Part shown: in pieces, positions 1 to 17,605 of the stretch
Position numbering within the stretch: position 1 is the first letter of the stretch
Layout of the letters: each line of letters opens with the position of its first letter
Source: a virus
Reading direction: 5' to 3' (one strand)
DNA length: 64,000 nucleotides
Virus record (IMG/VR): IMGVR_UViG_3300031857_007891
Span: 5,673 to 69,672 of that record
The notes under the pieces: generated by a model
The model's database searches: none
Seen by the model: only the letters and a program-made list of their open reading frames with translations
What the model was told of the DNA's origin: nothing
Program-made: the position numbers and the translations under genes

Positions 1-98
1 GCATTAACTGCTTCTACCTTGAATTTCTCCCCAACACTAACGTCGAGTTTTTCAAAGTTGTAAACAGCTGCATTGTCGAAGTATACATTAAGATTCAT
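1..98 (-). CDS. hypothetical protein, partial (runs off the left edge)
   Basis: Own translation from ATG at 98: MNLNVYFDNAAVYNFEKLDVSVGEKFKVEAVN, open to the edge; starts 9 nt after the stop of the 106-aa gene. Confidence 0.7.
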   Translation of the reverse strand, partial: MNLNVYFDNAAVYNFEKLDVSVGEKFKVEAVN

Positions 99-107
99 GG
101 CTTAATG

Positions 108-428
108 TTATTTAGGTTCAACAGCAGATACAATACCGAGAGCTTGAGCTTCAGCAGCAACTACAGTGTAAACAATAGTCTCAGTAATAGTACGAACTTC
201 CTCAGCATCGAGATCAGCATCAGCAGATACTTCGATGAGGTTAGCTACGTTAGGTTGACCAGAGATGATGTAGCAAGACAAGCCATCAGCAGAAGGCTCG
301 AGAGTGCAATCACCTGATACTACAGTCCATACAGGAATTCCGTCAACAGTTGCAGGGTTACCAGCAGCAGTTGTTGGGTTAATAGATACGAGAACTTTCT
401 CTTCGTTGGTTGATGAAATTGGGAACAT
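108..428 (-). CDS. hypothetical beta-rich (Ig-like?) protein, 106 aa
   Basis: Protein-like ORF rich in V/T/S/A beta-strand patterns; A-rich upstream region and a promoter-like motif at 463-470. Confidence 0.75.
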   Translation of the reverse strand: MFPISSTNEEKVLVSINPTTAAGNPATVDGIPVWTVVSGDCTLEPSADGLSCYIISGQPNVANLIEVSADADLDAEEVRTITETIVYTVVAAEAQALGIVSAVEPK

Positions 429-462
429 GTGATTTAAAATTTTTAAGATTTAATTAGAGGCA

Positions 463-470
463 CGAAGATA
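463..470 (-). promoter_or_regulatory. Bacteroidota-type -7 promoter element (TATCTTCG, one mismatch)
   Basis: Near match to TAnnTTTG, 35 nt upstream of the ATG at 428; divergent from the element at 494. Confidence 0.45.
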
Positions 471-493
471 CTAAATCCAATTCCATTTTATAC

Positions 494-501
494 TAACTTT
501 G
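494..501 (+). promoter_or_regulatory. Bacteroidota-type -7 promoter element TAACTTTG
   Basis: Exact TAnnTTTG in the intergenic strand-switch region, upstream of the ATG at 533. Confidence 0.65.
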
Positions 502-532
502 GGATAAATAAGAAACGAAACAAACTAGTAAA

Positions 533-673
533 ATGTCTAAGATTAAAGCAGGTACGTCGAATTCATTCAGTCCAAACCCTAGAAGAAAGAGACCAGGGGT
601 ACATTCTAAGAAGAAGTTCTCAAAACTAAAAAGTTCAAAACTTTACAAAAAAGTTTCTAGAGGGCAAGGTTAA
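533..673 (+). CDS. small highly basic protein, 46 aa (not in ORF track)
   Basis: MSKIKAGTSNSFSPNPRRKRPGVHSKKKFSKLKSSKLYKKVSRGQG*; A-rich start, promoter upstream; KRPGVHSK...RGQG resembles small basic proteins of aquatic phages. Confidence 0.75.
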   Translation: MSKIKAGTSNSFSPNPRRKRPGVHSKKKFSKLKSSKLYKKVSRGQG

Positions 674-678
674 TTTGT

Positions 679-686
679 TACATTTG
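679..686 (+). promoter_or_regulatory. Bacteroidota-type -7 promoter element TACATTTG
   Basis: Exact TAnnTTTG directly before the structured non-coding region. Confidence 0.6.
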
Positions 687-691
687 CAGAT

Positions 692-962
692 AGCAACCAT
701 CCACTTTGGATGATCACCCCTGAGGGCCAAAGGTAAGTAGGGGGTCAGACGTTGGGTTCTATCATACTCATTCTCAATTACATAGAGTATGAAAGTTGTC
801 CCCGATAGTTGCTGAAATGGAATTGACATAAGGTTCTGGGGTGGATCAAGACTATAGGCTGAAAGAAATGTCCCACCGAAGGCTAAAGACGGCAGAACTG
901 AAAATCAATTTTAAACAAAAAAATCTCTAAGGGGATAGGTGTGCCCAATTGGGAAATTATCC
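692..962 (+). ncRNA. candidate structured non-coding RNA or long structured leader (family unknown)
   Basis: Nested stems: 692-697/808-813, 698-702/708-712, 717-721/739-743, 751-756/801-806, 762-769/785-792, 821-826/905-910, 833-838/893-898, 840-844/873-877, 933-938/957-962; no credible ORF. Confidence 0.55.
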
Positions 963-986
963 TTACCTTTATCTAAATTTTTAGAA

Positions 987-1217
987 ATGGCAACTAACAT
1001 TAAAGCAGGGCTATATCAACCCCCATTTACTGAAGGGGATGAGAACCTAAGTTATATGCTAGTTTACATAGATGATAAAGTTGTGCAGTTTCTAGATGAG
1101 GATGAGAAGTTCGTCTGCCAATTCTCGTATGAAGAACTCAGAGGGATAATGGCTATCATGGCTGCAGAGCAGGAGAAGACACACCTTAGAATACAAGCTC
1201 AAGTTAGAAAAAACTAA
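987..1217 (+). CDS. hypothetical protein, 76 aa
   Basis: ORF 939-1217; ATG at 987 preferred (A-rich context, TACCTTTA at 964-971); stop overlaps the next start. Confidence 0.7.
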   Translation: MATNIKAGLYQPPFTEGDENLSYMLVYIDDKVVQFLDEDEKFVCQFSYEELRGIMAIMAAEQEKTHLRIQAQVRKN

Positions 1218-3550
1218 TGGGAATAAAGTTAAAGAAAATAGATAGAGTACCAACATCTTTAAAAGAACTTATAGATGTAGACTCTAGCACAGGGATAACC
1301 AGGTGTGTTGACTGCATATCTAATGGGATGATTCTAGTAGCATCTGTCTCAGAGATATACAAGAGGGATACATTTGTCTTCAAGCATCTTACAGATATCA
1401 TTAAGGTTGGACAAGGAATACAGGCTACATTAACTAATGGGATTATGACACTCTCAAGTAGCTTAGAGTCACTAAACCTTAACGACTTACTTGATGTATC
1501 GATTACTAATCCAGCAGATGATGATGTTTTAACTTACAACTCTATCCTGCAAAGATGGGAGAACACGGCCAGTGGTTGGGTCCCAACTAGCAGGACTATT
1601 AGTATCAACGGGGTAATCCAAGATTTATCAGCAAATAGAAGCTGGACTATATCAGCAGGAACAGGGACAGTGACATCAGTTACTGGGACTGGGACTGTGT
1701 CGGGGTTAACATTATCTGGGACAGGTACTACAGCAGTTACACTTACTCTTGGGGGAGTTATAGCATTAAACTCTGGAGATATAACTTCAGGATTAGGCTT
1801 TACCCCATACAATGCTACTAACCCTGCTGGGTATATTACAACATCTGCTTTAGCTAACTATGTTACGAATAGTTCATTAAGCAGCACATTAACTAACTAC
1901 GTTACTAGTAGTACTTTCAGTAGTACAATATCAGGGCTATCTTCTGTGTACCAACCATTGTTTGTAACAGATAATGGGTTAACTTACTCAGCAGGTACAT
2001 TAAAACTAGGGGGTGCATTAACTGGAAATACAGCTATATCCGGAGCATCTGGTACATACTCTTTATATCTTCAAAGATTCTCAGAGTTAAAGTTAAATGC
2101 TGATGATAGTAATACTTCTACTGAAATAAATCTGACTCCAACTCAGATAAAAGTTAAGACTCCTCTTTACGGATCTAAGTCTGTTGGGGATGTTCTTACT
2201 CTTAAAGATCCCACTACTGGGGAGGTAGAATTTGAAACTCCGGCTACAGGAAGTGGGGGTCTTCAATATGGGGTAGCCTCAGGTACTAACACATATGCTG
2301 TAACTATCTCAGGAGTAGCTAGTTACGTAGATGGGGATACATACGTTGTTAAATTCACTAACGGGAATGACGATGACTCTACTATTAACATCAATGGCTT
2401 AGGGGCAAAACTACTTGTAAAAGAATTTAATGTACAACTTACTGGAGGGGATATTGTATCGGGGCAAGATCTGATAATCATCTACGATGGGACTAACTTC
2501 CAAACTTTAGGGGTAGCCCCAAATCAGTTGTTTGCTTACATAACTAATGATGACTCAGTTACTATAACTAAAGGTCAACCTGTGTATGCCTTTGGGTCGG
2601 CAGGAAATAGAATGAGTGTTAAACTAGCAAGTAATGCAGGTGACTCAACTTCTGCTCAAACAGTAGGATTAGTATTCAGTTCTAGCATAGCTGCAGGACA
2701 GAAAGGCTTTATAATAACTCAAGGGGTTATCTCAGGAGTTGATACTGGATCTTACTCAGCAGGGAACACTCTATTTCTAGGGGCTACAGCAGGGACATTA
2801 ACTGCAACTAAACCATATGCCCCAAATCACTTAGTTTATATAGGGACTGTAGAGAGAGCAAATGCAGGGAATGGTCAGATCTATGTTAAACCACAAAATG
2901 GTTATGAGCTAAATGAGATTCATGATATAGACTTAGTCTCAACCGCCCCTGTAAATAACGACGTACTTGTATTTGATACTAGCACTACTCCTGACTTATG
3001 GAAACCTAAGAGTATCCCAACTATCTTAGGGTACACCCCACAAAATTCTAGTTATGCTTCATATACTGTACAAGCTAACAATACCGGGGCTACAGCAACT
3101 GCTGTTGATCATGCATTTAGATATAATGGAAACCAAACCTTCACTGGAACTATTACATATAACCAAGGAAGCAATTTAACATTAGGAGCAGGAACATATT
3201 ATTACAACTGGACAAGGATTGGTAATATGGTAAACTATTCGTTTTACTTTTACACTAGTGCTACACCAATAACATGGGTTGCTAACTCAGGTTTTATAAC
3301 ATGGGACCTGCCTACCGACATGCCAAATCCGGTAGTACCATCTGGGGTAAGCGTAAATGGATACTGGCTTATAAGAAATTTTATGTCAGTAGTTAATCAA
3401 AGAGACACCACAAGTAGTCAAGCTACTTTTTATGGGGGTTTGCAAGTAAATGTTGCAACTACCCCTACATTTAGATTCTTATTTAATCCTGCTGCAAACA
3501 TAACAAATGCTAGATTTTATAACTATAGTGGAACATATTTTACTTCATAA
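1217..3550 (+). CDS. fibre / receptor-binding-like virion protein, 777 aa
   Basis: G/T/S-rich, with typical phage fibre segments (LNDLLDVSIT..DDDVLTYN..W, VPTSRTISING, GTVTSV, LGFTPYN, LGYTP). Confidence 0.75.
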   Translation: MGIKLKKIDRVPTSLKELIDVDSSTGITRCVDCISNGMILVASVSEIYKRDTFVFKHLTDIIKVGQGIQATLTNGIMTLSSSLESLNLNDLLDVSITNPADDDVLTYNSILQRWENTASGWVPTSRTISINGVIQDLSANRSWTISAGTGTVTSVTGTGTVSGLTLSGTGTTAVTLTLGGVIALNSGDITSGLGFTPYNATNPAGYITTSALANYVTNSSLSSTLTNYVTSSTFSSTISGLSSVYQPLFVTDNGLTYSAGTLKLGGALTGNTAISGASGTYSLYLQRFSELKLNADDSNTSTEINLTPTQIKVKTPLYGSKSVGDVLTLKDPTTGEVEFETPATGSGGLQYGVASGTNTYAVTISGVASYVDGDTYVVKFTNGNDDDSTININGLGAKLLVKEFNVQLTGGDIVSGQDLIIIYDGTNFQTLGVAPNQLFAYITNDDSVTITKGQPVYAFGSAGNRMSVKLASNAGDSTSAQTVGLVFSSSIAAGQKGFIITQGVISGVDTGSYSAGNTLFLGATAGTLTATKPYAPNHLVYIGTVERANAGNGQIYVKPQNGYELNEIHDIDLVSTAPVNNDVLVFDTSTTPDLWKPKSIPTILGYTPQNSSYASYTVQANNTGATATAVDHAFRYNGNQTFTGTITYNQGSNLTLGAGTYYYNWTRIGNMVNYSFYFYTSATPITWVANSGFITWDLPTDMPNPVVPSGVSVNGYWLIRNFMSVVNQRDTTSSQATFYGGLQVNVATTPTFRFLFNPAANITNARFYNYSGTYFTS

Positions 3551-3552
3551 TC

Positions 3553-3798
3553 ATGATAACAGCAATTCTTCCAAGCCCGTTGATTTACTTCAACACTACC
3601 CTGACCAAGTTAAAGTGGGCAATGACCTACCCCGACAACGTGGCCTACTACCAGTTAACGACAGCAGATGACCTTATCCTAAAGGATGGTCAGTGTTTCA
3701 TTGACGACGCCACGGTTCAGTCTTGGGGGGCGGACGATACAATCATTACGGATGCCATAATCGCATTGGCTCCATGGAATATACAAATACCAGAATAA
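3553..3798 (+). CDS. small protein, possible fibre assembly chaperone, 81 aa
   Basis: Directly follows the fibre gene; acidic, W-G-A-D-D motif; raised GC3. Confidence 0.6.
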   Translation: MITAILPSPLIYFNTTLTKLKWAMTYPDNVAYYQLTTADDLILKDGQCFIDDATVQSWGADDTIITDAIIALAPWNIQIPE

Positions 3799-4859
3799 TG
3801 CAAAACTTAGATAAAGCACTAAGACTCCTTAACCTCCCAACAGAGCTAGGAGCAATCAATGGACAGATCAATAAGAGAACAACTAAGTCTCTAATTGAGA
3901 ACTGCTTGATGGATTTTACTAAGATGGTAAAGAATCCCACAACTGGGAAGTCTGAACCTACGACTACATTTAGCTATGTCATCGAGTCATCTGAATCTTT
4001 ATTCGGAGCTTACCCACTAAACTTAGTTGCTATTCACTTGCATTCTAGTAATATGGAATTGGTTAGCACGGAGAATAATTCATTCACTCTCTATCGGCCA
4101 TTCCAGGAGATAACTATATCTGACACACAGACAAGTTGGGTGGGATGGAATGAAATATCTATTGTCCCTACGGCTAATGGGTATGACTACAACTTCTACT
4201 ACGAGCAGGGCTTCAACAGCTACTTCGGGGTGTACTACCCACACGACGAAAACATCACGTGGAGGTCTATCTTAAGAAAGACATTTATCAAAACCACATC
4301 TACACCCAATCCCACCCGATTCAGTAAGTCATACCCTAAATACACTATTGCTGAACTTAAAAGAAAAACAGGGTTTACAGACCGTCAGTTAGCTGAAGCG
4401 TTTGGGACTACATGGCATGTAGAGCTTAAGAGTCCAGCTACTCACTGCCTTAACTTAGCAAGTGATATTGTAGTTATAAGTAATGAGATAGTAAAAGGAG
4501 AAGCGTATATCAATGGAATCCTCAGCAGAAACATCATGTATAAAACTCTGATTAGCTCTTACTTTAAGCTACTCCCAGACTTTGTTTGCAGATGGAAACT
4601 GTATAATGATAAGTTTACTACAGGCGGGGATAATGTATTTGGCACTGCTTGGAATAAGACTATTTCATCTACTGCAGATACTACCTTGAATCTTAAGAAG
4701 GGTACAGCTGTTAGTTATGATTCTACAACTAATACACTAACCTATCCACCAAATAGTAGACTTGTATTTGACTATGAATTCCTCCCAGCTCAGGGAAAGA
4801 ATGAAACCAATGGTTCACAACTCTACTTAGATACAATGACTAAAGAGTTATTCATATGA
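3798..4859 (+). CDS. hypothetical protein, 353 aa
   Basis: ORF 3723-4859; ATG at 3798 is coupled to the upstream stop (TAATG). Confidence 0.75.
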   Translation: MQNLDKALRLLNLPTELGAINGQINKRTTKSLIENCLMDFTKMVKNPTTGKSEPTTTFSYVIESSESLFGAYPLNLVAIHLHSSNMELVSTENNSFTLYRPFQEITISDTQTSWVGWNEISIVPTANGYDYNFYYEQGFNSYFGVYYPHDENITWRSILRKTFIKTTSTPNPTRFSKSYPKYTIAELKRKTGFTDRQLAEAFGTTWHVELKSPATHCLNLASDIVVISNEIVKGEAYINGILSRNIMYKTLISSYFKLLPDFVCRWKLYNDKFTTGGDNVFGTAWNKTISSTADTTLNLKKGTAVSYDSTTNTLTYPPNSRLVFDYEFLPAQGKNETNGSQLYLDTMTKELFI

Positions 4860-5236
4860 AAGACTTAATAAAATCAATCAAGTATAGACTGCAGCTCTTT
4901 GACGGGCTGTGGTCTATTCCACTAGCTTTCGTAACCTTCACAGCGTTTGGGTACATAAGCTCAGTCTACTTTGGTGATCCACTTATATCTATCGAGTACT
5001 TGCAACAAGTTTTAATGGCTGCATTAATCCTTGTATTTGCTAACTTTGTAGTATTCCTTGGAATTAACTTCAACTTTAGAAACTTACAGAAAGAGTTTTA
5101 CTCTAAAGATCTGAAGTACTACTCTAAAATGGAACTTAACTCATGGCAAAAAATAAAATTATATCTGCTTGTTTACTTTGGATTTCTCTTATCCTTCCTA
5201 CTAATCCTTTGGTTAGTAATGACGGTTACTGCGTAA
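4856..5236 (+). CDS. putative holin (3 predicted TM helices)
   Basis: Three hydrophobic stretches; immediately upstream of the endolysin. Confidence 0.65.
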   Translation: MKDLIKSIKYRLQLFDGLWSIPLAFVTFTAFGYISSVYFGDPLISIEYLQQVLMAALILVFANFVVFLGINFNFRNLQKEFYSKDLKYYSKMELNSWQKIKLYLLVYFGFLLSFLLILWLVMTVTA

Positions 5237-5712
5237 GATTAACTGCAGAAGCTTTCATTGGAATTAGCGAGAAAGGTGGGAATAACAAGGGGTTTACGGA
5301 TAAATACTTCCGTAGACTAATGGAGAAGCAAGGCTGGAAACCAGGCTATGCTTGGTGTAGCTTCTTTGTCATGGGGGTACTAGATGAGTGTGACATCCCT
5401 AACACTATAACTGGATGGGCCCCAACTGCGTACAATAGAAAAGATGTGATATTCACGGATGGAAAGTTTAAGCAAAACTATAATCCAGCTGACGTGTTAA
5501 TCATGACTTTAAGCTATGGGTATGACAGGACTAGATACAAAGGTATCGGGCACACAGGCGTAGTAGAACTAATAGGGAAACACTCAGTTAGAACCATAGA
5601 AGGGAATACTAACGAAAGAGGGACTAGAGATTCAAGAACAGGGGATGGAGTATTTAGAAAGGTACGTCCATTGTCACGAAACTTACACATAACCAGATGG
5701 AAAAAAGCGTAA
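5143..5712 (+). CDS. CHAP-family endolysin with N-terminal signal-like peptide
   Basis: AWCSFFV (catalytic Cys), GHTGVV (His), IEGN motifs; N-terminus basic then hydrophobic. Confidence 0.85.
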   Translation: MAKNKIISACLLWISLILPTNPLVSNDGYCVRLTAEAFIGISEKGGNNKGFTDKYFRRLMEKQGWKPGYAWCSFFVMGVLDECDIPNTITGWAPTAYNRKDVIFTDGKFKQNYNPADVLIMTLSYGYDRTRYKGIGHTGVVELIGKHSVRTIEGNTNERGTRDSRTGDGVFRKVRPLSRNLHITRWKKA

Positions 5713-6098
5713 CAATCAAAGTAATTCAAGCGTTATCAGCTACACTACTTCTTATAGCAATTGCTGTCACAGTCAAAACTTGTAAGAGAGAAGATAGCGA
5801 TCCACTGCAGGATAGACTAGAGGAGATAAATGATAGCTTAATGCAAGAGGTAATGGAGAACTCAATTAAGATTGATTCTCTATACCTTAAAATAGACTCA
5901 CTAGATCTACTATCAGATACGATAATTAACAAACAATCAGTTGTCAATGAATACTATAATCAAGAGGTTTACAATATCCTTAGTGCTGATGCTCGTGGTG
6001 CTAACCGCAAGCTCGCAGAAGTCCTTAAAGTTTCGGACTCCCTCCTCAAAGCAGGATTCTTTTCCCGTACTATCAACGTACCAAACGAGCTTAATTAA
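5697..6098 (+). CDS. putative spanin component (N-terminal membrane anchor plus coiled coil)
   Basis: LSATLLLIAIAVTVKTC anchor, then repeated DSL heptads; follows the endolysin. Confidence 0.6.
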   Translation: MEKSVTIKVIQALSATLLLIAIAVTVKTCKREDSDPLQDRLEEINDSLMQEVMENSIKIDSLYLKIDSLDLLSDTIINKQSVVNEYYNQEVYNILSADARGANRKLAEVLKVSDSLLKAGFFSRTINVPNELN

Positions 6099-6402
6099 CC
6101 TCAACTTTAACTCCATGATGTACTGGTACGATGCCGCTACCAGGATGGAAAGGTTGTACCTATTGCAAAGAGAAAAATTAGACTACTATTATAAAATTAC
6201 TGGCGTACAAGCTACCAGTATACAAGATCTTCAAATGGTTTACGAGAATAAAGTAGCAATAGAGAAAAAAATTAAGGACGAAGCTGCTGACGAAGTTAAT
6301 AAACTCAAGAAACAAGTCAAAGGATTGAAGATAAAAAACACAATCTTGACAATCGGAGTAGGAGGTCTGGCGTTGACTACAGCTTATTTTGCTATTTTTT
6401 AG
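5947..6402 (+). CDS. putative second spanin component (signal peptide, coiled coil, C-terminal TM)
   Basis: Overlaps the previous gene in another frame; KRFTISLVLMLVVLTASSQ signal and TILTIGVGGLALTTAYFAIF C-terminal anchor; ATG at 5947 preferred to TTG at 5941. Confidence 0.6.
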   Translation: MNTIIKRFTISLVLMLVVLTASSQKSLKFRTPSSKQDSFPVLSTYQTSLINLNFNSMMYWYDAATRMERLYLLQREKLDYYYKITGVQATSIQDLQMVYENKVAIEKKIKDEAADEVNKLKKQVKGLKIKNTILTIGVGGLALTTAYFAIF

Positions 6403-6432
6403 TAAAACTATTGTTTATATAAAAAGTCTTAT

Positions 6433-6440
6433 TACATTTG
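6433..6440 (+). promoter_or_regulatory. Bacteroidota-type promoter (-7 TACATTTG, upstream TTG at 6411)
   Basis: Exact TAnnTTTG in the intergenic gap before groES. Confidence 0.7.
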
Positions 6441-6458
6441 CATAAAACCAAACGTAAT

Positions 6459-6722
6459 ATGAACTTTAATCCTACCAGAGATTGGGTAGTTCTCCCAATC
6501 CCACACAAGAAAGTAACAGACAGCGGAATTCTTTTATCTGATGAAGCCGCGAACTCACTTAAGTCTAACATATTAGAAGCCCTCAAAGTTGGACCAGAAT
6601 GTAAGCTGGTTAAAGAGGGAGATATGGTCTACGTGCACCCACACACTGAGGGTGTTATTATTACTGTTGAAGGAATTGACTACGTTATGATTAACGAATT
6701 CATGATTCTAGGTACACTATGA
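6459..6722 (+). CDS. groES: GroES/Cpn10-like co-chaperonin, 87 aa
   Basis: MNFNPTRDWVV..TDSGILL (mobile loop)..KVGP..VKEGDMV..EGIDYVMINEFMILG matches the Cpn10 pattern; ATG at 6459. Confidence 0.9.
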   Translation: MNFNPTRDWVVLPIPHKKVTDSGILLSDEAANSLKSNILEALKVGPECKLVKEGDMVYVHPHTEGVIITVEGIDYVMINEFMILGTL

Positions 6723-6973
6723 CTGGAAGCGTTACCATCTCATTAGAGGACTACGAAGAACTTAAAGACGGTTCTAAATCATCAATAGAACTAAAGTCTA
6801 AAGTTATCAAAGCAGCCAAAGAGATAGAGGTATTCTTGTCATTTCTATGTACCAGGGAAAGTATCTCTGAGTATATCACCGAGTTTAACTCGTATTCAAA
6901 GAAGTGTAAGATACATCTAATCGATGGAAAGGCTAAAATAGAACTTAACGAATTGCAAGATGAAGAAGTTTAA
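6719..6973 (+). CDS. hypothetical protein, 84 aa
   Basis: ATGA-coupled to groES; VTISLEDYEELK N-terminus is common in phage proteins. Confidence 0.75.
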   Translation: MTGSVTISLEDYEELKDGSKSSIELKSKVIKAAKEIEVFLSFLCTRESISEYITEFNSYSKKCKIHLIDGKAKIELNELQDEEV

Positions 6974-7277
6974 CATTACTGTAGATTCTACTAAGAAATT
7001 CCTGCAAGCTTTTAATGGGATTTTTAACATGACGTCTATGGAGTTGTCAGTATTAGCTGAGCTTCTAGACCATGGGGACACGGTCAATCTATGTTCCCCG
7101 GATAATAAGCGTAAAGTATCAAAGCTTTTAGAAATCAAGGACCACAACACCCTGAATAACTATGTTAAAAGACTTAAGGATAAGAAAGCTATCATAAAGT
7201 CTAAAGATGGGTACGTGATTAACCCTGTTTTAAGGAAGCAAGACTCTCAAATCATTATAACTATCAAGAATGGATGA
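6960..7277 (+). CDS. winged-helix DNA-binding-like protein
   Basis: MTSMELSVLAEL...RKVSKLLEI..HNTLNNYVKRLKDKKAI...YVINP fits a wHTH layout. Confidence 0.7.
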   Translation: MKKFNITVDSTKKFLQAFNGIFNMTSMELSVLAELLDHGDTVNLCSPDNKRKVSKLLEIKDHNTLNNYVKRLKDKKAIIKSKDGYVINPVLRKQDSQIIITIKNG

Positions 7278-7407
7278 AGTACAACTAACTGATGTGGTAA
7301 CCTTTTATCATATTGAGTACCACAACGTCGTTATAATAGTAGTACAATCCCCAACTGGTAAGGTTAAAAAAATAGATACAACTTACTCAATAGATTATAT
7401 AAACTAA
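7270..7407 (+). CDS. small hypothetical protein, 45 aa (not in ORF track)
   Basis: MDEVQLTDVVTFYHIEYHNVVIIVVQSPTGKVKKIDTTYSIDYIN*; fills the gap exactly and its TAA overlaps the next ATG. Confidence 0.6.
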   Translation: MDEVQLTDVVTFYHIEYHNVVIIVVQSPTGKVKKIDTTYSIDYIN

Positions 7408-7745
7408 TGGAAAAACAATTCCCCTCATTTCTTCAGATGATGTCTAACTATGTTAAATCATCTGCAAAACACATTGCTAATGGTTTTAAGGTGACTACAG
7501 AAGAGCAATATCGTAACAGATTGCAAGCCTGTCACTCCTGCCCAAACCTGAGTGAAGAGAAAAGATGTCTTCTTTGTGGTTGCTATGTAGAAAGTAAGGC
7601 ATACAGAATCTCTGATTACTGTCCAGACAATCCCCCAAGATGGGAGAAGTTGACAATTGGACAAGACGGAGTCCCTGTATCCATTAAATCTACAGATAAT
7701 GCAAAAGGAGAAGATAATAATACAGAAGCTAGCAACAAAGTATAA
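7407..7745 (+). CDS. Cys-rich putative metal-binding protein (DUF6171-like)
   Basis: RLQACHSC..RCLLCGC..K....CP...W pattern. Confidence 0.7.
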   Translation: MEKQFPSFLQMMSNYVKSSAKHIANGFKVTTEEQYRNRLQACHSCPNLSEEKRCLLCGCYVESKAYRISDYCPDNPPRWEKLTIGQDGVPVSIKSTDNAKGEDNNTEASNKV

Positions 7746-7935
7746 TCTCCCACTGCAGAAAATAGAAGAGATAGTCTACTCTCAATTTAAATACGTGGCT
7801 AAGGTCATGAAAGAGGGAGGCTTTGCTTCAATTCGACTGCAATATTTTGGGAAATTTCATGCAAAAAGTGAACGTATAGCTCATCTAAACGAGAAAACCA
7901 GACGTAAGAATGAAAGACTTGCTAACAGTAAATAA
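7699..7935 (+). CDS. IHF/HU-like DNA-binding protein
   Basis: KLATKYNLP..KIEEIV..F....IRLQYFGKF histone-like fold; ATG at 7699; typical position before terminase in crAss-like phages. Confidence 0.8.
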   Translation: MQKEKIIIQKLATKYNLPLQKIEEIVYSQFKYVAKVMKEGGFASIRLQYFGKFHAKSERIAHLNEKTRRKNERLANSK

Positions 7936-8407
7936 CAACATAGTCATACCATCCCCGTATGCTTTGACTATTACAGAGTTTGAGAAGTTGACTACAAAAG
8001 AGTTAGCATTTATCTATTTTTTTGCAGATCATCGGTCTAGCTATGCAGCCTATGACGAAGAAGAAAGAAAAGATAAGTTACTAGCCGAGTTAAAAGTCAA
8101 GTCAACTCCTAACCTACATGCAGGATTGCAGAAGTATAGGGAGTTGTCAGAGACACATGCTATCAAACTGCTCAAATCAGCTAGGTCTGCAGTTAATAAG
8201 CTAGAGAAATACTTCAAAGACATTGATCTTACAGCCATGGATGAGAATGGTAAGCTTCTTTATCAGGCAAAAGACTTGGTTGCTAACCTATCTAAAATCG
8301 GGGAGGTAATTGAAGGTTTAGATAGATTAGAAGAACTGGTGCAGAAGCAACAGGCTAAGGACAATCCTAACAGAGCAGGGGTTAAGACTAACAAATACAG
8401 TGAATAA
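7910..8407 (+). CDS. terS: putative terminase small subunit
   Basis: Helical 165-aa protein directly upstream of and coupled to TerL; KELAFIYF..D.RS.Y motif. Confidence 0.6.
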   Translation: MKDLLTVNNNIVIPSPYALTITEFEKLTTKELAFIYFFADHRSSYAAYDEEERKDKLLAELKVKSTPNLHAGLQKYRELSETHAIKLLKSARSAVNKLEKYFKDIDLTAMDENGKLLYQAKDLVANLSKIGEVIEGLDRLEELVQKQQAKDNPNRAGVKTNKYSE

Positions 8408-10371
8408 TGCTGAAGGATACCCATCTATTCTCACCTGCTGCTAGACATTACATAGAGTATGGGCACTATACTGATGCTCTCCCTGGAACTAAACAGTACT
8501 ACGAGTATTGGGATGGTGAACAGTTTAAATGCATGCACGGGTGTGAGATAAATGGGGTTAAGATATCAGGCTTTCACTACTTCTATCTTAACTACTGTCC
8601 TATTGATAGGATTATCGATGAAGAACAACCAGATGGAGAGGTAATATCACGAAGAGATAGAACTTTCCCAGCTTTCTATGATGGGGATTACCAATACTTC
8701 AATTCTGTAGATAAGGCTAGAAAAGAAAACAAACACATGGTTGTTCTCAAAGCACGTCGTAAGGGTTTCTCTTACAAAGCTGCAGCCATGCTATGTAGAA
8801 ACTACTTTCATCTAAGGAATAGCAAGAACTTTGTATTTGCTTCAGATAAGCAATACTTGATTGGGGATGGAATGCTGTCTAAAGCTTGGGATATTATCTC
8901 ATTCATAGATGATAACACAGCCTGGACACAACCTAGACTTATTGACCGTGAGATGCATAAACAATCAGGGTATAAAAAGAATGTAAACGGGGCTGACGTA
9001 ACTCTAGGATTTAAGTCACAGATAATTGGGGTATCACTTAAAGACGATCCAGATAAGATACGTGGTAAAGCAGGGGAATTAATCTTCTTCGAAGAATCAG
9101 GTTCATTCTCAGGCTTGCTTAAAGCTTGGGAGGTAGCTATGCCTACAATGAGACAGGGTTCTAAGACACTTGGAACTATGATTGCCTTTGGAACTGGTGG
9201 AGAAGAGGGCCCTGGATTTGAAGGATTAGAAGAACTATTCTACCATCCTGATGCCTACAACTGTTTAGGCTTTGAAAATGATTGGGATTCAGGGGCCATG
9301 GGAACTCAGTGTGGTTACTTCGTTCCTATCTACCAGAATTTAGATGGATTCATGGATGCTGATGGGAATAGTTTAACACAAGAGGCAATAGAGTATGAGG
9401 AGATGCAAAGGGAGAATAAAAAGAAAGCTAACGACCCAAAGTCTCATGACCAGTATATAGCTGAACATCCGTTTAGTCCTCAAGAAGCAACCTTGCAAGT
9501 AACGTCAAACACGTTTGATGTTAACTCATTAAAAGAGCAGTACAATAAGGTCATTGCTAATAATCTGCAGAAGATGGGGGTAGCAGGAAGATTCTACTAT
9601 GACTCACAGAATAAAATAGCCTTCTCCCCAACTCCTGATGCTAATCCAATCAATAAGTTCCCACACAGAAAAGACGATGACTTGACTGGATGCCCAGTTA
9701 TTTACGAAGCTCCATACAAAACTAAAGAAGGATTAACCCCTAAGAATTTATACGTAGTCTGTCATGACCCGTATGCCCAGGGAAAAGCTGAAAGCTCAAT
9801 GTCGTTAGGGGCTGCATACGTTATTAAGGTCCCAAATAATGTCTCTCAACCTGACGATTTAATAGTAGCCTCGTATATAGGGAGACCTCAGACGCAAGAT
9901 GAATACAATAGAAATCTATTTATGCTTGCTGAATTCTACAATGCTAAGATAGGATTCGAAAATGACCGAGGTGAGGTAATTGCCTATGCTAAAAGGTTCA
10001 GGAAACTACATCTTCTCCAAGAAGAATTTGAGATGTTGGATAAAAGGGAACTTAGAAGTAAGACAGTTAAACGTCAGTATGGTATGCACATGACTGAGCA
10101 AAGAAAGTCTCAGGGTGAATTGTATATTCGTGACTGGCTGATATCTGGGAGAGGAGCTGACGAGGATGGGAATGTGACCTTGAACATGCATAAGATATAT
10201 GACCCAGCTTTACTTCAAGAGTTAATAAAGTTTAACAGGAAAGGTAACTTTGACCGTGTGATGGCACTGATGGTTGGGATGTACCACACTAGAGAACTGT
10301 TTAACAAGGAACTACTATTAGACAATGACGATAATGCAACCAATGAATGGTTCGATAGGATATATAAATAA
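8407..10371 (+). CDS. terL: terminase large subunit
   Basis: Walker A-like LKARRKGFS, Walker B IFFEESG, GTGG coupling motif, RNase H-like HDPY...FDRVMA. Confidence 0.95.
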   Translation: MLKDTHLFSPAARHYIEYGHYTDALPGTKQYYEYWDGEQFKCMHGCEINGVKISGFHYFYLNYCPIDRIIDEEQPDGEVISRRDRTFPAFYDGDYQYFNSVDKARKENKHMVVLKARRKGFSYKAAAMLCRNYFHLRNSKNFVFASDKQYLIGDGMLSKAWDIISFIDDNTAWTQPRLIDREMHKQSGYKKNVNGADVTLGFKSQIIGVSLKDDPDKIRGKAGELIFFEESGSFSGLLKAWEVAMPTMRQGSKTLGTMIAFGTGGEEGPGFEGLEELFYHPDAYNCLGFENDWDSGAMGTQCGYFVPIYQNLDGFMDADGNSLTQEAIEYEEMQRENKKKANDPKSHDQYIAEHPFSPQEATLQVTSNTFDVNSLKEQYNKVIANNLQKMGVAGRFYYDSQNKIAFSPTPDANPINKFPHRKDDDLTGCPVIYEAPYKTKEGLTPKNLYVVCHDPYAQGKAESSMSLGAAYVIKVPNNVSQPDDLIVASYIGRPQTQDEYNRNLFMLAEFYNAKIGFENDRGEVIAYAKRFRKLHLLQEEFEMLDKRELRSKTVKRQYGMHMTEQRKSQGELYIRDWLISGRGADEDGNVTLNMHKIYDPALLQELIKFNRKGNFDRVMALMVGMYHTRELFNKELLLDNDDNATNEWFDRIYK

Positions 10372-10433
10372 TGCCATAGTACTAATAAAAAGCACAAAAG
10401 AGTCGTAAATTAGCCTCTAGTATAAAACTAAAG

Positions 10434-10441
10434 TAATTTTG
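10434..10441 (+). promoter_or_regulatory. -7 promoter element TAATTTTG, 5 nt before the portal ATG
   Basis: Exact TAnnTTTG in an intergenic gap. Confidence 0.6.
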
Positions 10442-10446
10442 TATTA

Positions 10447-12660
10447 ATGTTCGGACAAGCCTCAATACCTAAGCAAAGAATTCCTCTCTCTCAGAAAACA
10501 GAAAAATGGGGAAAAGAGTGTGTAGACGCATTCATAGACTTATCAAAATTTGGGTTAAGTGAACGAAGAAGTTACTTGAAATCCATGTATGATTACTACA
10601 ATGGTGTAATCGATGAGGAGGATTACAACTATGTGCTAAAGCCATACGGGAAAACAAGATCTCACTTCCCATCTAAGATGAGGAACTACCCCATCATCAA
10701 ACCTATCATAGACCTATTGCTTGGGGAAAAATCAAAACGTCCACTAGAGTTTACTGTAACCGTTCAGAACTCAGATGCAGTCAGCATTAAAGAAGAGGCT
10801 TTAAAGAATCTAATTCTGCAAAATCTAAGGGAGCGGTTCCTTGCAGAGTTAGCAAAATCCGGGCAATTGGATATGCAAGGGGAGCAGGTTGAAGAACCTC
10901 CGCTCCCAAAGCAAATCCAGGAGGAATTCAATAGGTCTTATAAAGATCGAAGAGCTATTAGAGGGCAGGCTAGCCTTAACTATATAATGTATTACAATGA
11001 AATCTACGATAAGCTTCAAAAGCAGTGGTTTCATTTCTTAGTGTCAGGAGAGTGCTACTCACATAAAGGGGTAAGAAGGAACGAACCTTTCTATGAGGTA
11101 ATAAACCCACTAGATGTAGACTTTGATAAAGATCCTGATATCGACTTTGTAGAAGATGCAGATTGGGCTATCATCAGAAAATTCTCACATGCCTCAACTA
11201 TTGTAGATGCATACGGGGATTACTTGTCAGAAGAACAAGTACTAGATTTAGAGAACCCAACTCACACTTCATCTGAAGCTTACCTACTTTATAGAGTACA
11301 AGCTTCTGGAGCAGATAGCAACATGAATCGTAATAGACTGATTGAGGTTATCACTGTCTATTGGAAGAGTAGAAAACGTATTGGGTTTATGACCTACGTA
11401 AATCCAGAGACTGGAGTACCTGAAACAGTATCTATACAAGATGGATTTAGAATAACCCCTGAACTAAAAGAGTTAGGGGCTAAAGTAGAATGGGAATGGG
11501 TTAACGAAGTATGGGAGGGAACTCGTATAGATGGAAGATTCTATATCAGAGTTAATCCTGTAGCTAACCAAAGAGCTAGTCTAGACAACCCATCACTGTG
11601 CAAACTCCCAATTAATGGAAGAAAATACTCTGACATTAACTCTCAGAATGTTTCGATAGTAAGCTTAGGTATTCCTTACCAGCTTAACTATAATATTTAT
11701 AAGTATCGACTAGAGCTAGCTATTGCACGAAGCAAGGACATCATTGCTCAATTCGATATTAACATGATCCCTAAGAATTGGGACATGGATAAGTTCATGT
11801 ACTTTGTAGAAGGTACAGGTATTGCTTGGGTAGATTATAACAAAGAAGGAATTATCCTATCTCCTCAGCACCAGTCTGTACTAGACATGTCTATTAAGAC
11901 AATATCTCAGTATCTAACTCTCCTTGAATCTATCATGGTTGAATGGGAGAAGGTTAGTGGGGTAACTAGACAAAGACAAGGACAGATGGGCACCTATGAA
12001 GGTAAAGCTACATCTCAACAAAGTATTGTACAATCTTCACACATAACTGAAGACTTGTTTAGAAAATTCTCTCACTTTGAACAAAGAGAATTGCAAGGAA
12101 TGCTAGACTACTCTAAAGTAGCCTGGATAAATGGAAAGAAATCTATGTATGTCCTCCCTGATGGATCTGTAGACGATATTGACGTAGACCCACTAACTCA
12201 TATGGAAAGTGAGTACGGAATATTCGTATCAGATGCAGGTAAGGATGTAGAAAGAATGCAAAAAATAGAAGGTTTAACTCAAGCAGCACTACAAAATGGT
12301 ACTCCACTCTCATCAATCATTTCAATTTTTGAAAGCAACAGCTTTGCTCAAATTAAAGACAAAGTTATCCAAGCTGAAAAATCTGCTCAAGAGCTGGCTA
12401 AAGCCCAACAGCAAGCAGAGCAAGAAGCAAAAGCCCAAGAAATGCAAATGCAACAACAAAACCTGCAAATGCAGTTAGTCGAGAAAGAGAAAGACAGGCA
12501 GATGCAAATTGAGAAAGCTTTGATTGCTGCAGAATCCTCATTTAACGGAAATAGTGCAAGCCTTGAAAAGATGCTTCAAGATTTCCAAATTAAACAAGAG
12601 GAGTTAGCACTTAAAGAAAGAGAACTCGAGATAAAAGCTCAGCAAGTAAATAAAGAATAA
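10447..12660 (+). CDS. portal protein
   Basis: Follows TerL; NYPIIKPIIDLLLGE, WEGTRI, SGVTRQRQG motifs of crAss-like portals; Q-rich coiled-coil C-terminal barrel. Confidence 0.92.
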   Translation: MFGQASIPKQRIPLSQKTEKWGKECVDAFIDLSKFGLSERRSYLKSMYDYYNGVIDEEDYNYVLKPYGKTRSHFPSKMRNYPIIKPIIDLLLGEKSKRPLEFTVTVQNSDAVSIKEEALKNLILQNLRERFLAELAKSGQLDMQGEQVEEPPLPKQIQEEFNRSYKDRRAIRGQASLNYIMYYNEIYDKLQKQWFHFLVSGECYSHKGVRRNEPFYEVINPLDVDFDKDPDIDFVEDADWAIIRKFSHASTIVDAYGDYLSEEQVLDLENPTHTSSEAYLLYRVQASGADSNMNRNRLIEVITVYWKSRKRIGFMTYVNPETGVPETVSIQDGFRITPELKELGAKVEWEWVNEVWEGTRIDGRFYIRVNPVANQRASLDNPSLCKLPINGRKYSDINSQNVSIVSLGIPYQLNYNIYKYRLELAIARSKDIIAQFDINMIPKNWDMDKFMYFVEGTGIAWVDYNKEGIILSPQHQSVLDMSIKTISQYLTLLESIMVEWEKVSGVTRQRQGQMGTYEGKATSQQSIVQSSHITEDLFRKFSHFEQRELQGMLDYSKVAWINGKKSMYVLPDGSVDDIDVDPLTHMESEYGIFVSDAGKDVERMQKIEGLTQAALQNGTPLSSIISIFESNSFAQIKDKVIQAEKSAQELAKAQQQAEQEAKAQEMQMQQQNLQMQLVEKEKDRQMQIEKALIAAESSFNGNSASLEKMLQDFQIKQEELALKERELEIKAQQVNKE

Positions 12661-14831
12661 TGGATAATCAGACTAGAAGGATATTGCTTGAGAGAGTAAA
12701 GGCTTCTGGTTTCCCAGGGTCAATACTAGATGTATTTCAGAACCCTACTATTCTAGATGAGTATACGGCTCAACAGCAACAACAGTTAATAGTAGCTCAA
12801 ACTCCACAAGAGCAAGAGCAAGGTCTACGTCCTGCACATGCAGCAGGTAATGTTGGGCAGTCTATGGTCTTCCCTGACGTACAACCTAACCAAAGCTTTA
12901 ACACAGTAGGGATGAAGATCCCTATTGACATTAATAAGGTTGACAATCAAGGTAACTTAGTAGAATCTTATAAAGCTGTACCCCCAGGAATTCAAAACCT
13001 ACCTACAGGACCTAATAGTGGGATGGTAATAGAAACTCCTGCTGAAGGATATAAAACTGGGGGAGTAAAAAAGTATCAGACAGGAGACTTTAGAACTACT
13101 CCTGCTAATTTACCTTGGCTAGGAACTAAAGGGCAGGTACTAACAGAAGAAGAACAAGAAGAAAAACTTTTAGATAAAAAGTTTGGTATAGGTCCAACAG
13201 TAGATAAAGCAGAAGCAATTAAAGCTAAAGAGACAATACAAAGAACAAAACGTATTGAAACTCCGCTTCCTTCAGGAGCTATAACTCCAACTATGGGGCC
13301 AGTTGAATTTGCTCTGATGGCACCAGTAGCTGGAGCATCTGCTATGAGAGCAGCACCAATGATTGGATCAGCATTAAATACATCTATAGCAGGAGTACAA
13401 GGGTTAACAGTAGGTAATGCATTAGGTGCCGGATTTGCTTCTGATGCATTAGTTAATAGATTACCACAGATTCCAGGACAACTCAGCAGAGGAGAATATG
13501 CTGATGCTGCTATTAATGCTGGTACAGGTGTACTAGACTTATACGGGGCAGGTATGCTTAGACCTATTTCCAGAATGATTAGACCTACTTATAAAGGAGC
13601 TAGTCCTAAAGAGAAATTATACGAGACAGATTTTGAGGAGGTAAAGAATGCAGATGGATATGTAAGTGGTACATATGTTCCAGATTATTACACAGATTAC
13701 ACAAATGAGAACTTTAGAATGTATAGATCGAATCAGTTACCTGACCCTCCTCAATTTATAGATATTGGAGACCTTGGTACTAGTGCTCCTCGTAATACTT
13801 TCAAGAAGTTTACAAACAAATCTGGATTAACTAAAGAAGAAGCTCTTACACGAGTTACTGATAAAGACAAAGATGTTATCTCTAAAATGTCTGAAACAGA
13901 ATTTCAAAATAGTGTATTAAAACCTAATGGAGAGATTGTTCAATACGAGCAAGGATCTTTAATGGATGAATTTTCTGGTAAACAAAGTGTAGTACCTATG
14001 ACTCCAAAAGCTTACACAGAAGAGTTCAACTCTAAAATAGATCTTCTTAATGATATTATTGCTCAAAGAAATAAATCAGGAGTACAATATAAAGTCAAGG
14101 AGTTAACTGAGGATGGTAGATTAATCTTTGAAACACCAGAGCAAACAGTTCCAAGGCAATTAACAGCTAAACAAAAAGAAAATATAGAATGGTTTACTAA
14201 AGATGCTGAAGACTGGGCAGTGAATAAAGGGGGATTAGTAAAAAAAGAAAAAGGATGGGTATATACAAATCCAAATGTTCATCATGATGATTTTTTTAAA
14301 ACTAAAGAAGAAGCTATTCAATCTATAAGAGCTGAAATAACTAGAATACAAACTCCTAAAACAATAGGAGGTCAATCTTCTTGGGGAGTAGGTATTAAGT
14401 CTGGTCAATGGAGAGGAGATGTAAAAGACATTGCAAATACTGATTACTTTAGAAGTATTCCTGGGTTAGAAATGAGAAATACTACTCAATCTGTATTTGC
14501 AGACTCTACTCCTAGAAAAGGCTCAGGGGCTTATGAAGCTATTAATGAGTATCTAAAAAAGATAGACCTAGGGAGAGTAAAACCAGGATTTAACTCTCAG
14601 ACAGAATTCTCAAGAGGAGCATGGGAGAATTTTATTAATTCAGGAAGAGCAGTAGGATTTTATGGCAATCCCAGCACTGTATATGGAACTATGAAAACCA
14701 TACTTCCTCCTGCACTTGTAGTAGGAGCAGCAGCTGCCCAAGAAAAGAAACTAACTGGAGGCACTAAAACCTATCTAAAAGGTGGATTAAAGAACAGAGT
14801 GCTATACAATAAAGCTAAGTATAAAAGATAA
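12660..14831 (+). CDS. multidomain virion-associated protein: DUF192-like N-terminus, GG motifs, hydrophobic helices, GNAT-like C-terminal domain
   Basis: VAQTPQEQEQGL..SMVF..SF...MKIPIDI..D..G.LV..VIETPA resembles DUF192; RKGSGAYEAI...S.GAWE.F..SG.A resembles GNAT motifs A/B. Confidence 0.6.
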   Translation: MDNQTRRILLERVKASGFPGSILDVFQNPTILDEYTAQQQQQLIVAQTPQEQEQGLRPAHAAGNVGQSMVFPDVQPNQSFNTVGMKIPIDINKVDNQGNLVESYKAVPPGIQNLPTGPNSGMVIETPAEGYKTGGVKKYQTGDFRTTPANLPWLGTKGQVLTEEEQEEKLLDKKFGIGPTVDKAEAIKAKETIQRTKRIETPLPSGAITPTMGPVEFALMAPVAGASAMRAAPMIGSALNTSIAGVQGLTVGNALGAGFASDALVNRLPQIPGQLSRGEYADAAINAGTGVLDLYGAGMLRPISRMIRPTYKGASPKEKLYETDFEEVKNADGYVSGTYVPDYYTDYTNENFRMYRSNQLPDPPQFIDIGDLGTSAPRNTFKKFTNKSGLTKEEALTRVTDKDKDVISKMSETEFQNSVLKPNGEIVQYEQGSLMDEFSGKQSVVPMTPKAYTEEFNSKIDLLNDIIAQRNKSGVQYKVKELTEDGRLIFETPEQTVPRQLTAKQKENIEWFTKDAEDWAVNKGGLVKKEKGWVYTNPNVHHDDFFKTKEEAIQSIRAEITRIQTPKTIGGQSSWGVGIKSGQWRGDVKDIANTDYFRSIPGLEMRNTTQSVFADSTPRKGSGAYEAINEYLKKIDLGRVKPGFNSQTEFSRGAWENFINSGRAVGFYGNPSTVYGTMKTILPPALVVGAAAAQEKKLTGGTKTYLKGGLKNRVLYNKAKYKR

Positions 14832-14861
14832 ATTTATACTTTTTAACTATAAGTAAACCAA

Positions 14862-14869
14862 TACCTTTG
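14862..14869 (+). promoter_or_regulatory. -7 promoter element TACCTTTG, 5 nt before the scaffold ATG
   Basis: Exact TAnnTTTG in an intergenic gap. Confidence 0.65.
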
Positions 14870-14874
14870 TATAT

Positions 14875-16032
14875 ATGGCAACCAAACAGAACGAAGAAAA
14901 GCTAAGTATTTCAGACATTACATTCGACGATTTTATCGGGGATGGTCTAGAAACAAAAGAAAATGAAAGTGAAAGTGCTTCTAACGAACTTGATAACGAT
15001 TCTAAGAAAAGGTCTCCTAAGAATGAAGACCTGGACGAAGAAGATGTCAACTCGGAAGAAGATTCTGATGAAGACGATGACGAGGAAGGAGAGGAAGAAT
15101 CTCCTAGACCGTCTAGAAAAAATTCAAAAGAAGAACAAGACGACGATGATGTAAATGAAGATAACTCTGACGAAGACTCAGAATCTTCAATTGCTCGGTC
15201 TATTGCAAAGGCATTAGGCTATGACCTTGAAAATACGTATGCTGATACTGAAGAAGGATTAGTAGAGTTTACTAAAGATATTGCTCAAAACATTGCTGAA
15301 GATCAAATTCAGGAGTTGTTTTCTCAATTCCCTTTAATTCAAAAGCATCTAGATTATGTTCTAGCAGGTGGAGACTCTGAACAATTCTTCCAGGCTTACA
15401 ATCCAGGAATGGACTACAGCCAAATGGAAGTTGATAAAGGAGATTCAAGAATGCAGAAGATGCTGATTACTGACTACTTCAAATCTAAAGGGCACGATGA
15501 GGAATTCATCAAAGATATGCTTGACGATTATGAAGATACTGGTAAACTCTATGATAAGGCTACTGTAGCTCAAAAACAACTTTCTGCTATTCAAACAAAA
15601 GAAAGAGAGCAGATGGTTGAGTTACAGAAGCAAAGACAACAAGAGATGCAGCAAAAGCAACAAGAATTCTGGGAGGGTGTTGCTAATACTATAGATGAAG
15701 GAAGAGAGTTCTCAGGGATTAAGATCCCAGAAAAAGAGAAAGGCAAATTCTTCGATTATATCTCTGCCCCTGTAAATAAACAGGGAAATACTAAAAGAGA
15801 TATGGACTATAATAATGCCCCACTAGAAACTAAATTGGCAATTGACTACCTGTTATATAAGGGATTCAACTTGTCTGAAATCATAACTACTAAGGCTAAG
15901 ACTGAAAGTGCTAGAAACCTTAGAGATAGAATTCAGACAGGTCAGGAGAAACTTAGAAACCAAGGTATGGTAGATAAGAAAATAAAGAAATTCGATCCAG
16001 ACCAACTGGATGTAAAGAGGCTGTTTGAATAA
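14875..16032 (+). CDS. putative capsid scaffolding protein
   Basis: Very acidic low-complexity N-terminus, coiled-coil C-terminal half, directly upstream of MCP. Confidence 0.75.
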   Translation: MATKQNEEKLSISDITFDDFIGDGLETKENESESASNELDNDSKKRSPKNEDLDEEDVNSEEDSDEDDDEEGEEESPRPSRKNSKEEQDDDDVNEDNSDEDSESSIARSIAKALGYDLENTYADTEEGLVEFTKDIAQNIAEDQIQELFSQFPLIQKHLDYVLAGGDSEQFFQAYNPGMDYSQMEVDKGDSRMQKMLITDYFKSKGHDEEFIKDMLDDYEDTGKLYDKATVAQKQLSAIQTKEREQMVELQKQRQQEMQQKQQEFWEGVANTIDEGREFSGIKIPEKEKGKFFDYISAPVNKQGNTKRDMDYNNAPLETKLAIDYLLYKGFNLSEIITTKAKTESARNLRDRIQTGQEKLRNQGMVDKKIKKFDPDQLDVKRLFE

Positions 16033-16069
16033 AACTCAGACAACAATTAACTTTTAAAATTATAGAATC

Positions 16070-17494: not shown

Positions 17495-17514
17495 TTTGTG
17501 TTTGGTTTGCAATA

Positions 17515-17543: not shown

Positions 17544-17605
17544 AAAACTATAAAATTGAAGGTTATTCTTTATCCTTCAGTACTAATTAATAAAAAGAAC
17601 TTATT

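Follow-up and report, generated by a model that had tools for sequence, protein, structure and literature searches.

In lambdoid phages, transcription of the late genes starts at the promoter PR' with a leader of ~194 nt, the '6S' RNA, which closes at the terminator tR' and is read through with the help of Q. The put RNAs of phage HK022 and the EAR element of Bacillus subtilis are cis-acting RNAs of ~70-120 nt, consisting of two or three hairpins, which make the polymerase resistant to terminators. To our knowledge, large and intricately conserved RNAs of no known function are rare, and each of those solved so far has revealed new biochemistry. For crAss-like phages, a preprint on phi14:2 (10.1101/2020.03.07.982082) reports that the rifampicin-sensitive host polymerase reads the middle and late genes, and it describes two abundant long intergenic RNAs in the early arm (g004-g006), present from the earliest time point onwards.

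The DNA analysed in this study, referred to as the window, is a stretch of 64,000 nucleotides taken from an IMG/VR virus record of 69.7 kb (bases 5673-69672), the completeness of which is estimated at 85%. Its source is a lake-water crAss-like phage. The plus strand carries genes for terminase, portal and major head protein with crAss-type PHROG matches, and also very large ORFs of 1934-2503 aa. Replication genes, among them an ORF resembling family A DNA polymerases, occupy the minus strand upstream of the RNA described below, and the RNA itself is found ~260 nt into the rightward arm, just beyond the divergent intergenic region 429-532. The features surrounding the RNA are as follows.

494..501, + strand: box TAACTTTG, a match to the Bacteroidota -7 type pattern, upstream of the 46-aa gene
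533..673, + strand: gene for a very basic 46-aa protein with GQG as its last residues, conserved as the neighbour on the 5' side of the RNA
679..686, + strand: box TACATTTG, candidate -7 promoter element of the RNA, recognised by the conserved placement of TAnnTTTG
947..986, + strand: terminator-free, variable A/T-rich spacer leading from the core of the RNA up to the following start codon
987..1217, + strand: gene for a 76-aa protein, the first gene after the RNA in most clades, with 38 related loci
1217..3550, + strand: tail-fibre-like gene (777 aa), preceding the terminase, portal and head genes on the same strand
8407-10371, + strand: terminase gene (PHROG match)
10447-12660, + strand: portal gene (PHROG match)
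16070-17494, + strand: major head protein gene (PHROG match)

The label 'tail fibre' for the 777-aa ORF is a putative one, given only for its repeat-rich sequence and its likeness to the N-terminus of the corresponding ORF in L214, the most divergent of the homologous loci. The box TAACTTTG at 494-501 is possibly the first promoter of the rightward arm, and the alignment of relatives likewise places a TAnnTTTG box upstream of the 46-aa peptide gene. Further into the array, a strong bidirectional intrinsic terminator with a 14-bp stem and a T-run is located at 20647-20678, between two late genes of the plus strand.

A sequence-only reading of this DNA had pointed to positions 679-962 as a structured non-coding RNA with its own promoter, situated in the only long ORF-free stretch of the window. 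When ORFs of at least 40 aa on the plus strand are considered, the longest uncovered stretch on that strand is indeed 674-938 (265 nt), the runner-up being only 104 nt. The sequences and coordinates which that reading gave are correct, with TACATTTG at 679-686, and all eight core helices that it named were found to be real, showing compensatory changes in homologues. Single-sequence folding energy, which it had proposed as a check, is unremarkable, with z-scores of -1.13 for 679-962 and -1.66 for 692-947; for the latter stretch, 10 of 200 shuffled sequences fold equally well. Since by the criterion of that reading the single-sequence energy counts against the finding, the decision had to come from homologues.

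Homologues were gathered from viral, metagenome and MAG contigs. A profile search matched 146 loci, many of them the same contig found twice, with 131 at full length and 54 distinct sequences. The 76-aa protein recovered 38 loci, of which 12 carry the non-coding stretch at 75-98% identity; among the remaining ones, one has no upstream DNA and 25 have an ORF of 330-368 aa abutting the 76-aa gene. Scans with patterns of invariant motifs returned 21 stretches, 36 stretches (four by chance, two sequences) and 51 in metagenome contigs. The 16-mer pattern matched mostly by chance, and 27 of the 113 loci that it returned match the profile at E < 1e-30. In the species-genome collection, 2 of the 59 pattern matches are real and 57 are due to chance. 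Of the two real carriers, one is a contig of 81.6 kb binned with a Bacteroidia MAG and the other a contig of 3.3 kb binned with a Fusobacteriaceae MAG; as the binning may be wrong, the promoter type is the only indication of the host that is used here. Neither blastn nor megablast detected a homologue among public phage records, and none of five complete genomes of more distant relatives gave a match at E < 0.2. A covariance model restricted to domain 2 (R1), in which three P9 pairs are placed one column off with no effect on the results used here, scores 155.9 bits on the window and finds a single copy in the record.

In the larger relatives with genomes of 103-124 kb (L011, L015-L037 and L039), the ORF of 330-368 aa takes the place of both the peptide gene and the RNA. 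Going by the motifs it contains, we presume this ORF to be metallophosphoesterase-like. The possibility that the RNA is a pseudogene remnant of such an ORF was rejected, as tblastn of nine of the 330-368 aa proteins against window positions 1-1300 gave nothing better than E 0.26.

Covariation in homologues, another check proposed by the sequence-only reading, gave a clear outcome. The structure tested comprises the earlier helices in slightly extended form, 54 base pairs in ten helices, on an alignment of 54 sequences (49 distinct rows). Cells of the alignment at paired positions are complementary in 93.3% as against 80.3% in shuffles, changes on both sides are seen for 36 of the 54 pairs as against 24.8, cells with double changes number 326 as against 103, and the covariation score is 0.343 as against 0.141; for each of these measures, none of 500 shuffles reached the observed value. 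Shifting the partners by 1-3 columns lowers the score to 0.118 or less. None of the ten helices is without a pair that has changed on both sides. Working from the 54-sequence alignment alone, RNAalifold proposed 44 pairs, and compensatory double changes occur in 23 of these. In 12 of 13 nucleotide comparisons, the core is more similar to the window than both of the flanking coding sequences are. On a scan of all column pairs for an additional tertiary or pseudoknot helix, only scattered single pairs were detected, which the clade structure explains.

The changes also indicate the molecule and the strand. The pair 753/804 occurs as UA in 22 sequences, UG in 12 and CG in 15, and several other pairs likewise pass through G.U. 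On the other strand such intermediates would be A.C, which argues for an RNA made from the plus strand rather than a DNA element. The alternative of a DNA structure, which the sequence-only reading had kept beside its RNA, is thereby disfavoured, and the minus strand folds no better than its shuffles (z = 0.07).

The conserved core extends over 692-946 (~255 nt) and is composed of a four-way junction, a long arm, an A-rich linker and an AAGGGG tail. Its parts are listed below.

692..813, + strand: domain 1, four-way junction, supported by covariation
692-697/808-813, + strand: helix H1, AGCAAC/GTTGCT, 5 of 6 pairs changed on both sides
698-702/708-712, + strand: helix H2, CATCC/GGATG, 4 of 5 pairs changed on both sides
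716-721/740-745, + strand: helix H3, CCCCT/AGGGG, 4 of 6 pairs changed on both sides
727-728/732-733, + strand: mini-hairpin inside H3, 1 of 2 pairs changed on both sides
751-756/801-806, + strand: helix H4, GTTGGG/CCCGAT, carrying H5; 1 of 6 pairs changed on both sides, the others invariant
763-769/785-791, + strand: helix H5, CATACTC/GAGTATG, 7 of 7 pairs changed on both sides
814..911, + strand: domain 2, long arm of three helices, supported by covariation
820-826/905-911, + strand: helix H6, including AATTGA/TCAATT at 821-826/905-910, 6 of 7 pairs changed on both sides
832-838/893-899, + strand: helix H7, including GTTCTG/CAGAAC at 833-838/893-898, 4 of 7 pairs changed on both sides
840-844/873-877 and 850-852/870-872, + strand: helix H8, GGTGG/CCACC in its first part, 2 of 5 and 2 of 3 pairs changed on both sides
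878-892, + strand: 3' bulge GAAGGCTAAAGACGG of 15 nt, nearly invariant
912..946, + strand: A-rich linker (TTAAAC followed by seven A), invariant AAGGGG at 929-934 and a short closing hairpin, delimited by invariant columns

The lower figure for H7, with 76.7% of the cells paired, is due to a shift of the MAFFT register from clade to clade. Throughout the core, long stretches of unpaired sequence are invariant, namely GATCACC, GGGTCAGA, GGGTTCTA and AAAGTTGTCCCC in domain 1 together with GAAGGCT.AA.ACGGCA and AAGGGG, and domain 2 has a conserved end loop of 17 nt; the invariance of unpaired runs signifies sequence conservation beyond pairing. The third hairpin at 933-962 with its palindrome CCCAATTGGG, which the sequence-only reading had included, is not conserved. 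What recurs of it is GGG 931-933 with CCC 944-946, and as these closing pairs vary on one side only, from G-C to G.U, the short hairpin is weakly supported. A 15-nt exact direct repeat, ATTACATAGAGTATG, is common to H5 (777-791) and the start of the terminase gene (8447-8461), and may be a chance occurrence in A/T-rich DNA.

On comparison with Rfam 15 (4227 models), no match was found at the gathering threshold in the whole window, and relaxing E up to 10 over 400-1100 yielded three eukaryotic chance matches only (E 3.3-9.8). For six diverse homologues, none of six weak Rfam matches overlaps the RNA. The sequence-only reading had not recognised a tRNA or tmRNA, and likewise no genes were detected by ARAGORN in the 64 kb and no Rfam tRNA or tmRNA match at E up to 10; that it recognised no known riboswitch either agrees with the lack of any Rfam riboswitch match at the same limit. 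A group I intron was considered and rejected. RF00028 gives no match at E up to 10, nothing is missing from the 76-aa ORF, which has the same start Met in relatives that do not have the RNA, and indels in the spacer are not multiples of three. No description of such an RNA was found in full-text literature, where supplements could list further motifs. A preprint on coevolutionary mining (10.64898/2026.09.22.753630) deals with reverse-transcriptase-linked RNA arrays that are unrelated to this RNA. The RNA is therefore a real and uncatalogued structured family of freshwater crAss-like phages.

All 54 homologues have a TAnnTTTG box whose end lies 0-5 nt upstream of the first helix, in agreement with the proposal that the RNA has its own promoter. 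We take TAnnTTTG to be the -7 consensus of the Bacteroidota primary sigma factor. The motif occurs 63 times in the window as against 66 expected; in view of this lack of window-wide enrichment, the weight of the box comes from its conserved placement only. A clear -33 element was not seen. Two other TAnnTTTG boxes, at 10434-10441 and 14862-14869, end just 5 nt before the starts of the portal gene and of the next large gene, and if they are promoters, they would give rise to very short leaders or to none.

The layout on the 3' side is equally constant. No terminator-like site lies between the core and the next start in any of the 54 homologues, and scans of window positions 1-4000 and 1-20000 found none on the plus strand within 947-986, the former range being free of such sites on that strand over its whole length. 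The next same-strand ORF begins 29-49 nt past the core in 42 of the 54; the other 12, which form one clade, have a short ORF ~40 nt past the core, followed by the 76-aa homologue. The first ORF after the RNA is the 76-aa gene in 41 cases, the short ORF in 12 and a tail-fibre-like gene in L214, where the RNA lies directly before that gene and the upstream peptide gene is absent. The downstream neighbour can accordingly be the 76-aa gene, a small membrane-like ORF or a tail-fibre-like gene, while position and orientation are fixed. With no terminator and a same-strand ORF close behind, the RNA is best regarded as a cis-acting 5' leader, and a free-standing non-coding RNA is less likely. Of the free-standing RNA with its own promoter which the sequence-only reading had proposed, the structured RNA and the conserved box stand, and it is the free-standing part that this layout speaks against.

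In L131, L070, L183 and their relatives, the short ORF inserted before the 76-aa homologue is hydrophobic (MDIILMF.. or MEILLMF..), and an additional TAACTTTG box separates the RNA from the 76-aa gene in the same clade. Masking of the start codon by the invariant tail was rejected as a general device, since the pairing is stronger than in shuffles for no more than 8 of the 53 sequences, all of them from two clades, and the median z is +0.41. Those eight related sequences have z from -2.3 to -3.4 and p from 0.003 to 0.02 (300 shuffles each), uncorrected for 53 tests.

On the 5' side, the stop codon of the basic peptide (44-47 aa) is found 15-24 nt before H1 in 124 of the 126 loci with upstream context. 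The 46-aa protein has no Pfam, PHROG or Atlas name. The peptide family (44-51 aa, consensus MAK..F.PKPK.KRPGVHSK.K.SKLK.SK.YKK.SRGQG) includes loci L267-L346, occurs in at least 322 of 600 candidate IMG/VR stretches, and has a wide variety of gene neighbours, on contigs that reach 299 kb. Among the best 80 peptide loci, only 4 carry the RNA as judged by nhmmer, and a search of other peptide loci with R1 gave no convincing match (best E 0.061). In loci without the RNA, the peptide gene is followed by terminators or unrelated genes. A dedicated ribonucleoprotein of the RNA and the 46-aa peptide was rejected, with 76 of these 80 loci devoid of the RNA. As the peptide family is far wider than the RNA, their linkage is treated as synteny within the phage group.

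Some hints of transcription come from sequencing libraries. Among 24 runs listed, six are RNA libraries with a small share of the words, and four were examined as Logan assembled contigs. Two contigs of the riverine RNA library X16 lie over 710-888 of the RNA, and contigs from X15, X16 and X18 lie over the 76-aa gene. These contigs hint only weakly at transcription; they may represent DNA carry-over, and give no ends or levels. That the X16 contigs stop at 888 is attributed to assembly breaks at a strain-invariant stretch, and no conclusion is drawn from positions that lack cover.

Considering these observations together, the explanation that we favour, and to which we give about an even chance, is that the RNA forms the structured, cis-acting 5' leader of the late arm and serves as a docking platform that decides late-gene expression. 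Host RNA polymerase would transcribe it from the Bacteroidota-type promoter with the box at 679-686, at the head of the rightward arm and a short way beyond the point at which the leftward replication genes diverge. Once folded, the leader would offer the inferred platform to a partner, for which the transcribing polymerase, a phage or host protein and a small ligand are all candidates, and this partner would decide the expression of the late genes downstream. Invariant unpaired runs fit such a role, whereas the single-sequence fold energy is ordinary (z from -1.1 to -1.7), and no expression platform common to the family was found, terminators being present in 0 of 54 and tail-start pairing in 8 of 53 sequences. 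Within this explanation, the sub-mechanism we prefer, on a tentative footing, is a co-transcriptional modification of the polymerase, i.e. processive antitermination. The modified polymerase would then be carried through internal terminators such as that at 20647-20678, which, being a strong terminator inside the array, would provide a read-through device with a target. Against antitermination, the RNAs known to act in this manner are far smaller than the 255-nt core. Also counting against the leader as a whole are the lack of window-wide TAnnTTTG enrichment and of a clear -33 element, and the five more distant relatives with complete genomes in which no match to the RNA appears.

A leader layout is also compatible with a stable RNA released by processing. 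Such a trans-acting non-coding RNA, cut from the mRNA by host RNases or ending at a non-canonical stop, might belong to a ribonucleoprotein, draw off a host protein or defence sensor as a decoy, or help in virion assembly. We consider it a good deal less probable than the cis-acting leader, about on a par with antitermination. RNAs with large binding partners typically show such a size, a two-domain build and long stretches of invariant unpaired sequence, and immediately downstream of the preceding gene the present RNA has a conserved promoter box of its own. The abundant long intergenic RNAs of phi14:2 described in the preprint (10.1101/2020.03.07.982082) would provide a precedent, though R1 finds no homologue there. 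The absence of a terminator-like site from all 54 homologues and the same-strand ORF 29-49 nt behind the core in 42 of them argue for the leader instead. The single copy per genome (by R1, in the record) also counts against a trans-acting role, as does the want of a dedicated partner in the basic peptide. Antisense targets were considered too and rejected, 10-mer complementarity to the rest of the window not being enriched (40 as against ~30 expected). A new riboswitch class, timing the late genes by a host metabolite or signal, appears improbable to us. A conserved multi-helix junction with invariant junction nucleotides, located in a 5' leader, is what such a switch would present, and the tail-start pairing in two clades (8 of 53 sequences, related to one another, p uncorrected for 53 tests) might be a part of its mechanism; but an expression platform is missing from the family at large, a limit as lax as E 10 brings up no Rfam riboswitch, and the genes downstream are structural, with no link to a metabolite.

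Domain 1 could alternatively mimic a tRNA, so that RNase P and the nucleases which process tRNA 3' ends would cut the transcript there and separate the peptide mRNA from the late mRNA, or some other tRNA-binding factor would be recruited. Read by eye from the sequence, the helices of domain 1 follow the order of cloverleaf arms, with a single base linking H1 (6 bp) to H4 (6 bp) on the 3' side and a gap of 5 nt between H3 and H4. By the tRNA consensus, the invariant GGGTTCTA (754-761) presumably reads like the end of a T-stem with its T-loop. Yet ARAGORN and the Rfam tRNA model (E up to 10) detect nothing of the kind, the H2 loop is variable with no D-loop signature, the H3 loop has 18 nt, the would-be T-loop bears a 38-nt insertion, and domain 2 would be left unexplained; we therefore hold this to be quite improbable. 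Least probable of all, in our estimate, is that the stretch acts at the DNA level, for instance as a site of packaging or an origin of replication, or else as a passive 5' structure that stabilises the mRNA. Its place near the point where the two arms diverge would suit an origin or a packaging site, but compensatory changes that pass through G.U on the plus strand only and the ordinary folding of the minus strand do not, and the invariant unpaired runs far exceed what a stabilising hairpin needs.

The cis-acting leader, our preferred reading, would have a wider meaning if the RNA were a protein-independent regulator of the 60-kb late arm acting through polymerase reprogramming, or a new riboswitch class, which we think unlikely but worth stating. 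If so, the fold of the nascent transcript would be a larger and more elaborate functional analogue of put RNA, and one RNA would time virion production in widespread freshwater crAss-like phages. The RNA sits where a crAss-like phage switches to virion production, and the host-polymerase-dependent timing of late genes in these abundant phages is poorly understood. With a defined core, a structure backed by covariation, 54 variants and clear boundaries, reporter, probing and end-mapping work can be designed now.

Several described systems share some of these properties. The phi29 pRNA (RF00044) resembles the present RNA in being a structured phage product a few hundred bases long, which has a promoter of its own, putative in the present case, and morphogenesis genes alongside; in contrast to it, our RNA has no Rfam match and belongs to a different phage group, and shows no evidence of ring-forming loop-loop pairing. 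The intergenic RNAs of phi14:2 are long non-coding transcripts from a crAss-like phage of a Bacteroidota host as well, but according to the preprint they are placed on the early, replication-side arm, and the best R1 match in NC_021806 has an E of only 0.38. In that genome, a 1.7-kb gene-free stretch (2904-4602) is where the preprint places the abundant non-coding RNAs, and by R1 it is unrelated. With cobalamin and T-box leaders, as we know them, the RNA has in common the multi-helix junction, the invariant junction bases and the location in a 5' untranslated region. It differs from them in matching no Rfam riboswitch, in having no conserved terminator or start-masking helix, and in lying upstream of virion genes.

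The closest likeness in position is to the antitermination leaders. As with put and EAR, a structured RNA comes right after a promoter, putative in our case, where a long operon with internal terminators begins, and no dedicated protein would be needed; unlike put and EAR, it has a core of ~255 nt with a four-way junction and a long arm, and no match to the EAR model of Rfam at E up to 10. Like the lambdoid late leader, it would be a promoter-proximal non-coding leader which heads a long same-strand late operon, presumably read by the host polymerase. It has no closing terminator (0/54), in contrast to that leader, and there is no sequence relation between the two. The lambda leader, as far as we know, is not an intricately conserved fold, whereas the present RNA has ten covarying helices, and as expected of a lambdoid or put-type leader, it lies behind a conserved box in 54 of 54 homologues and heads the same-strand terminase, portal and head genes.
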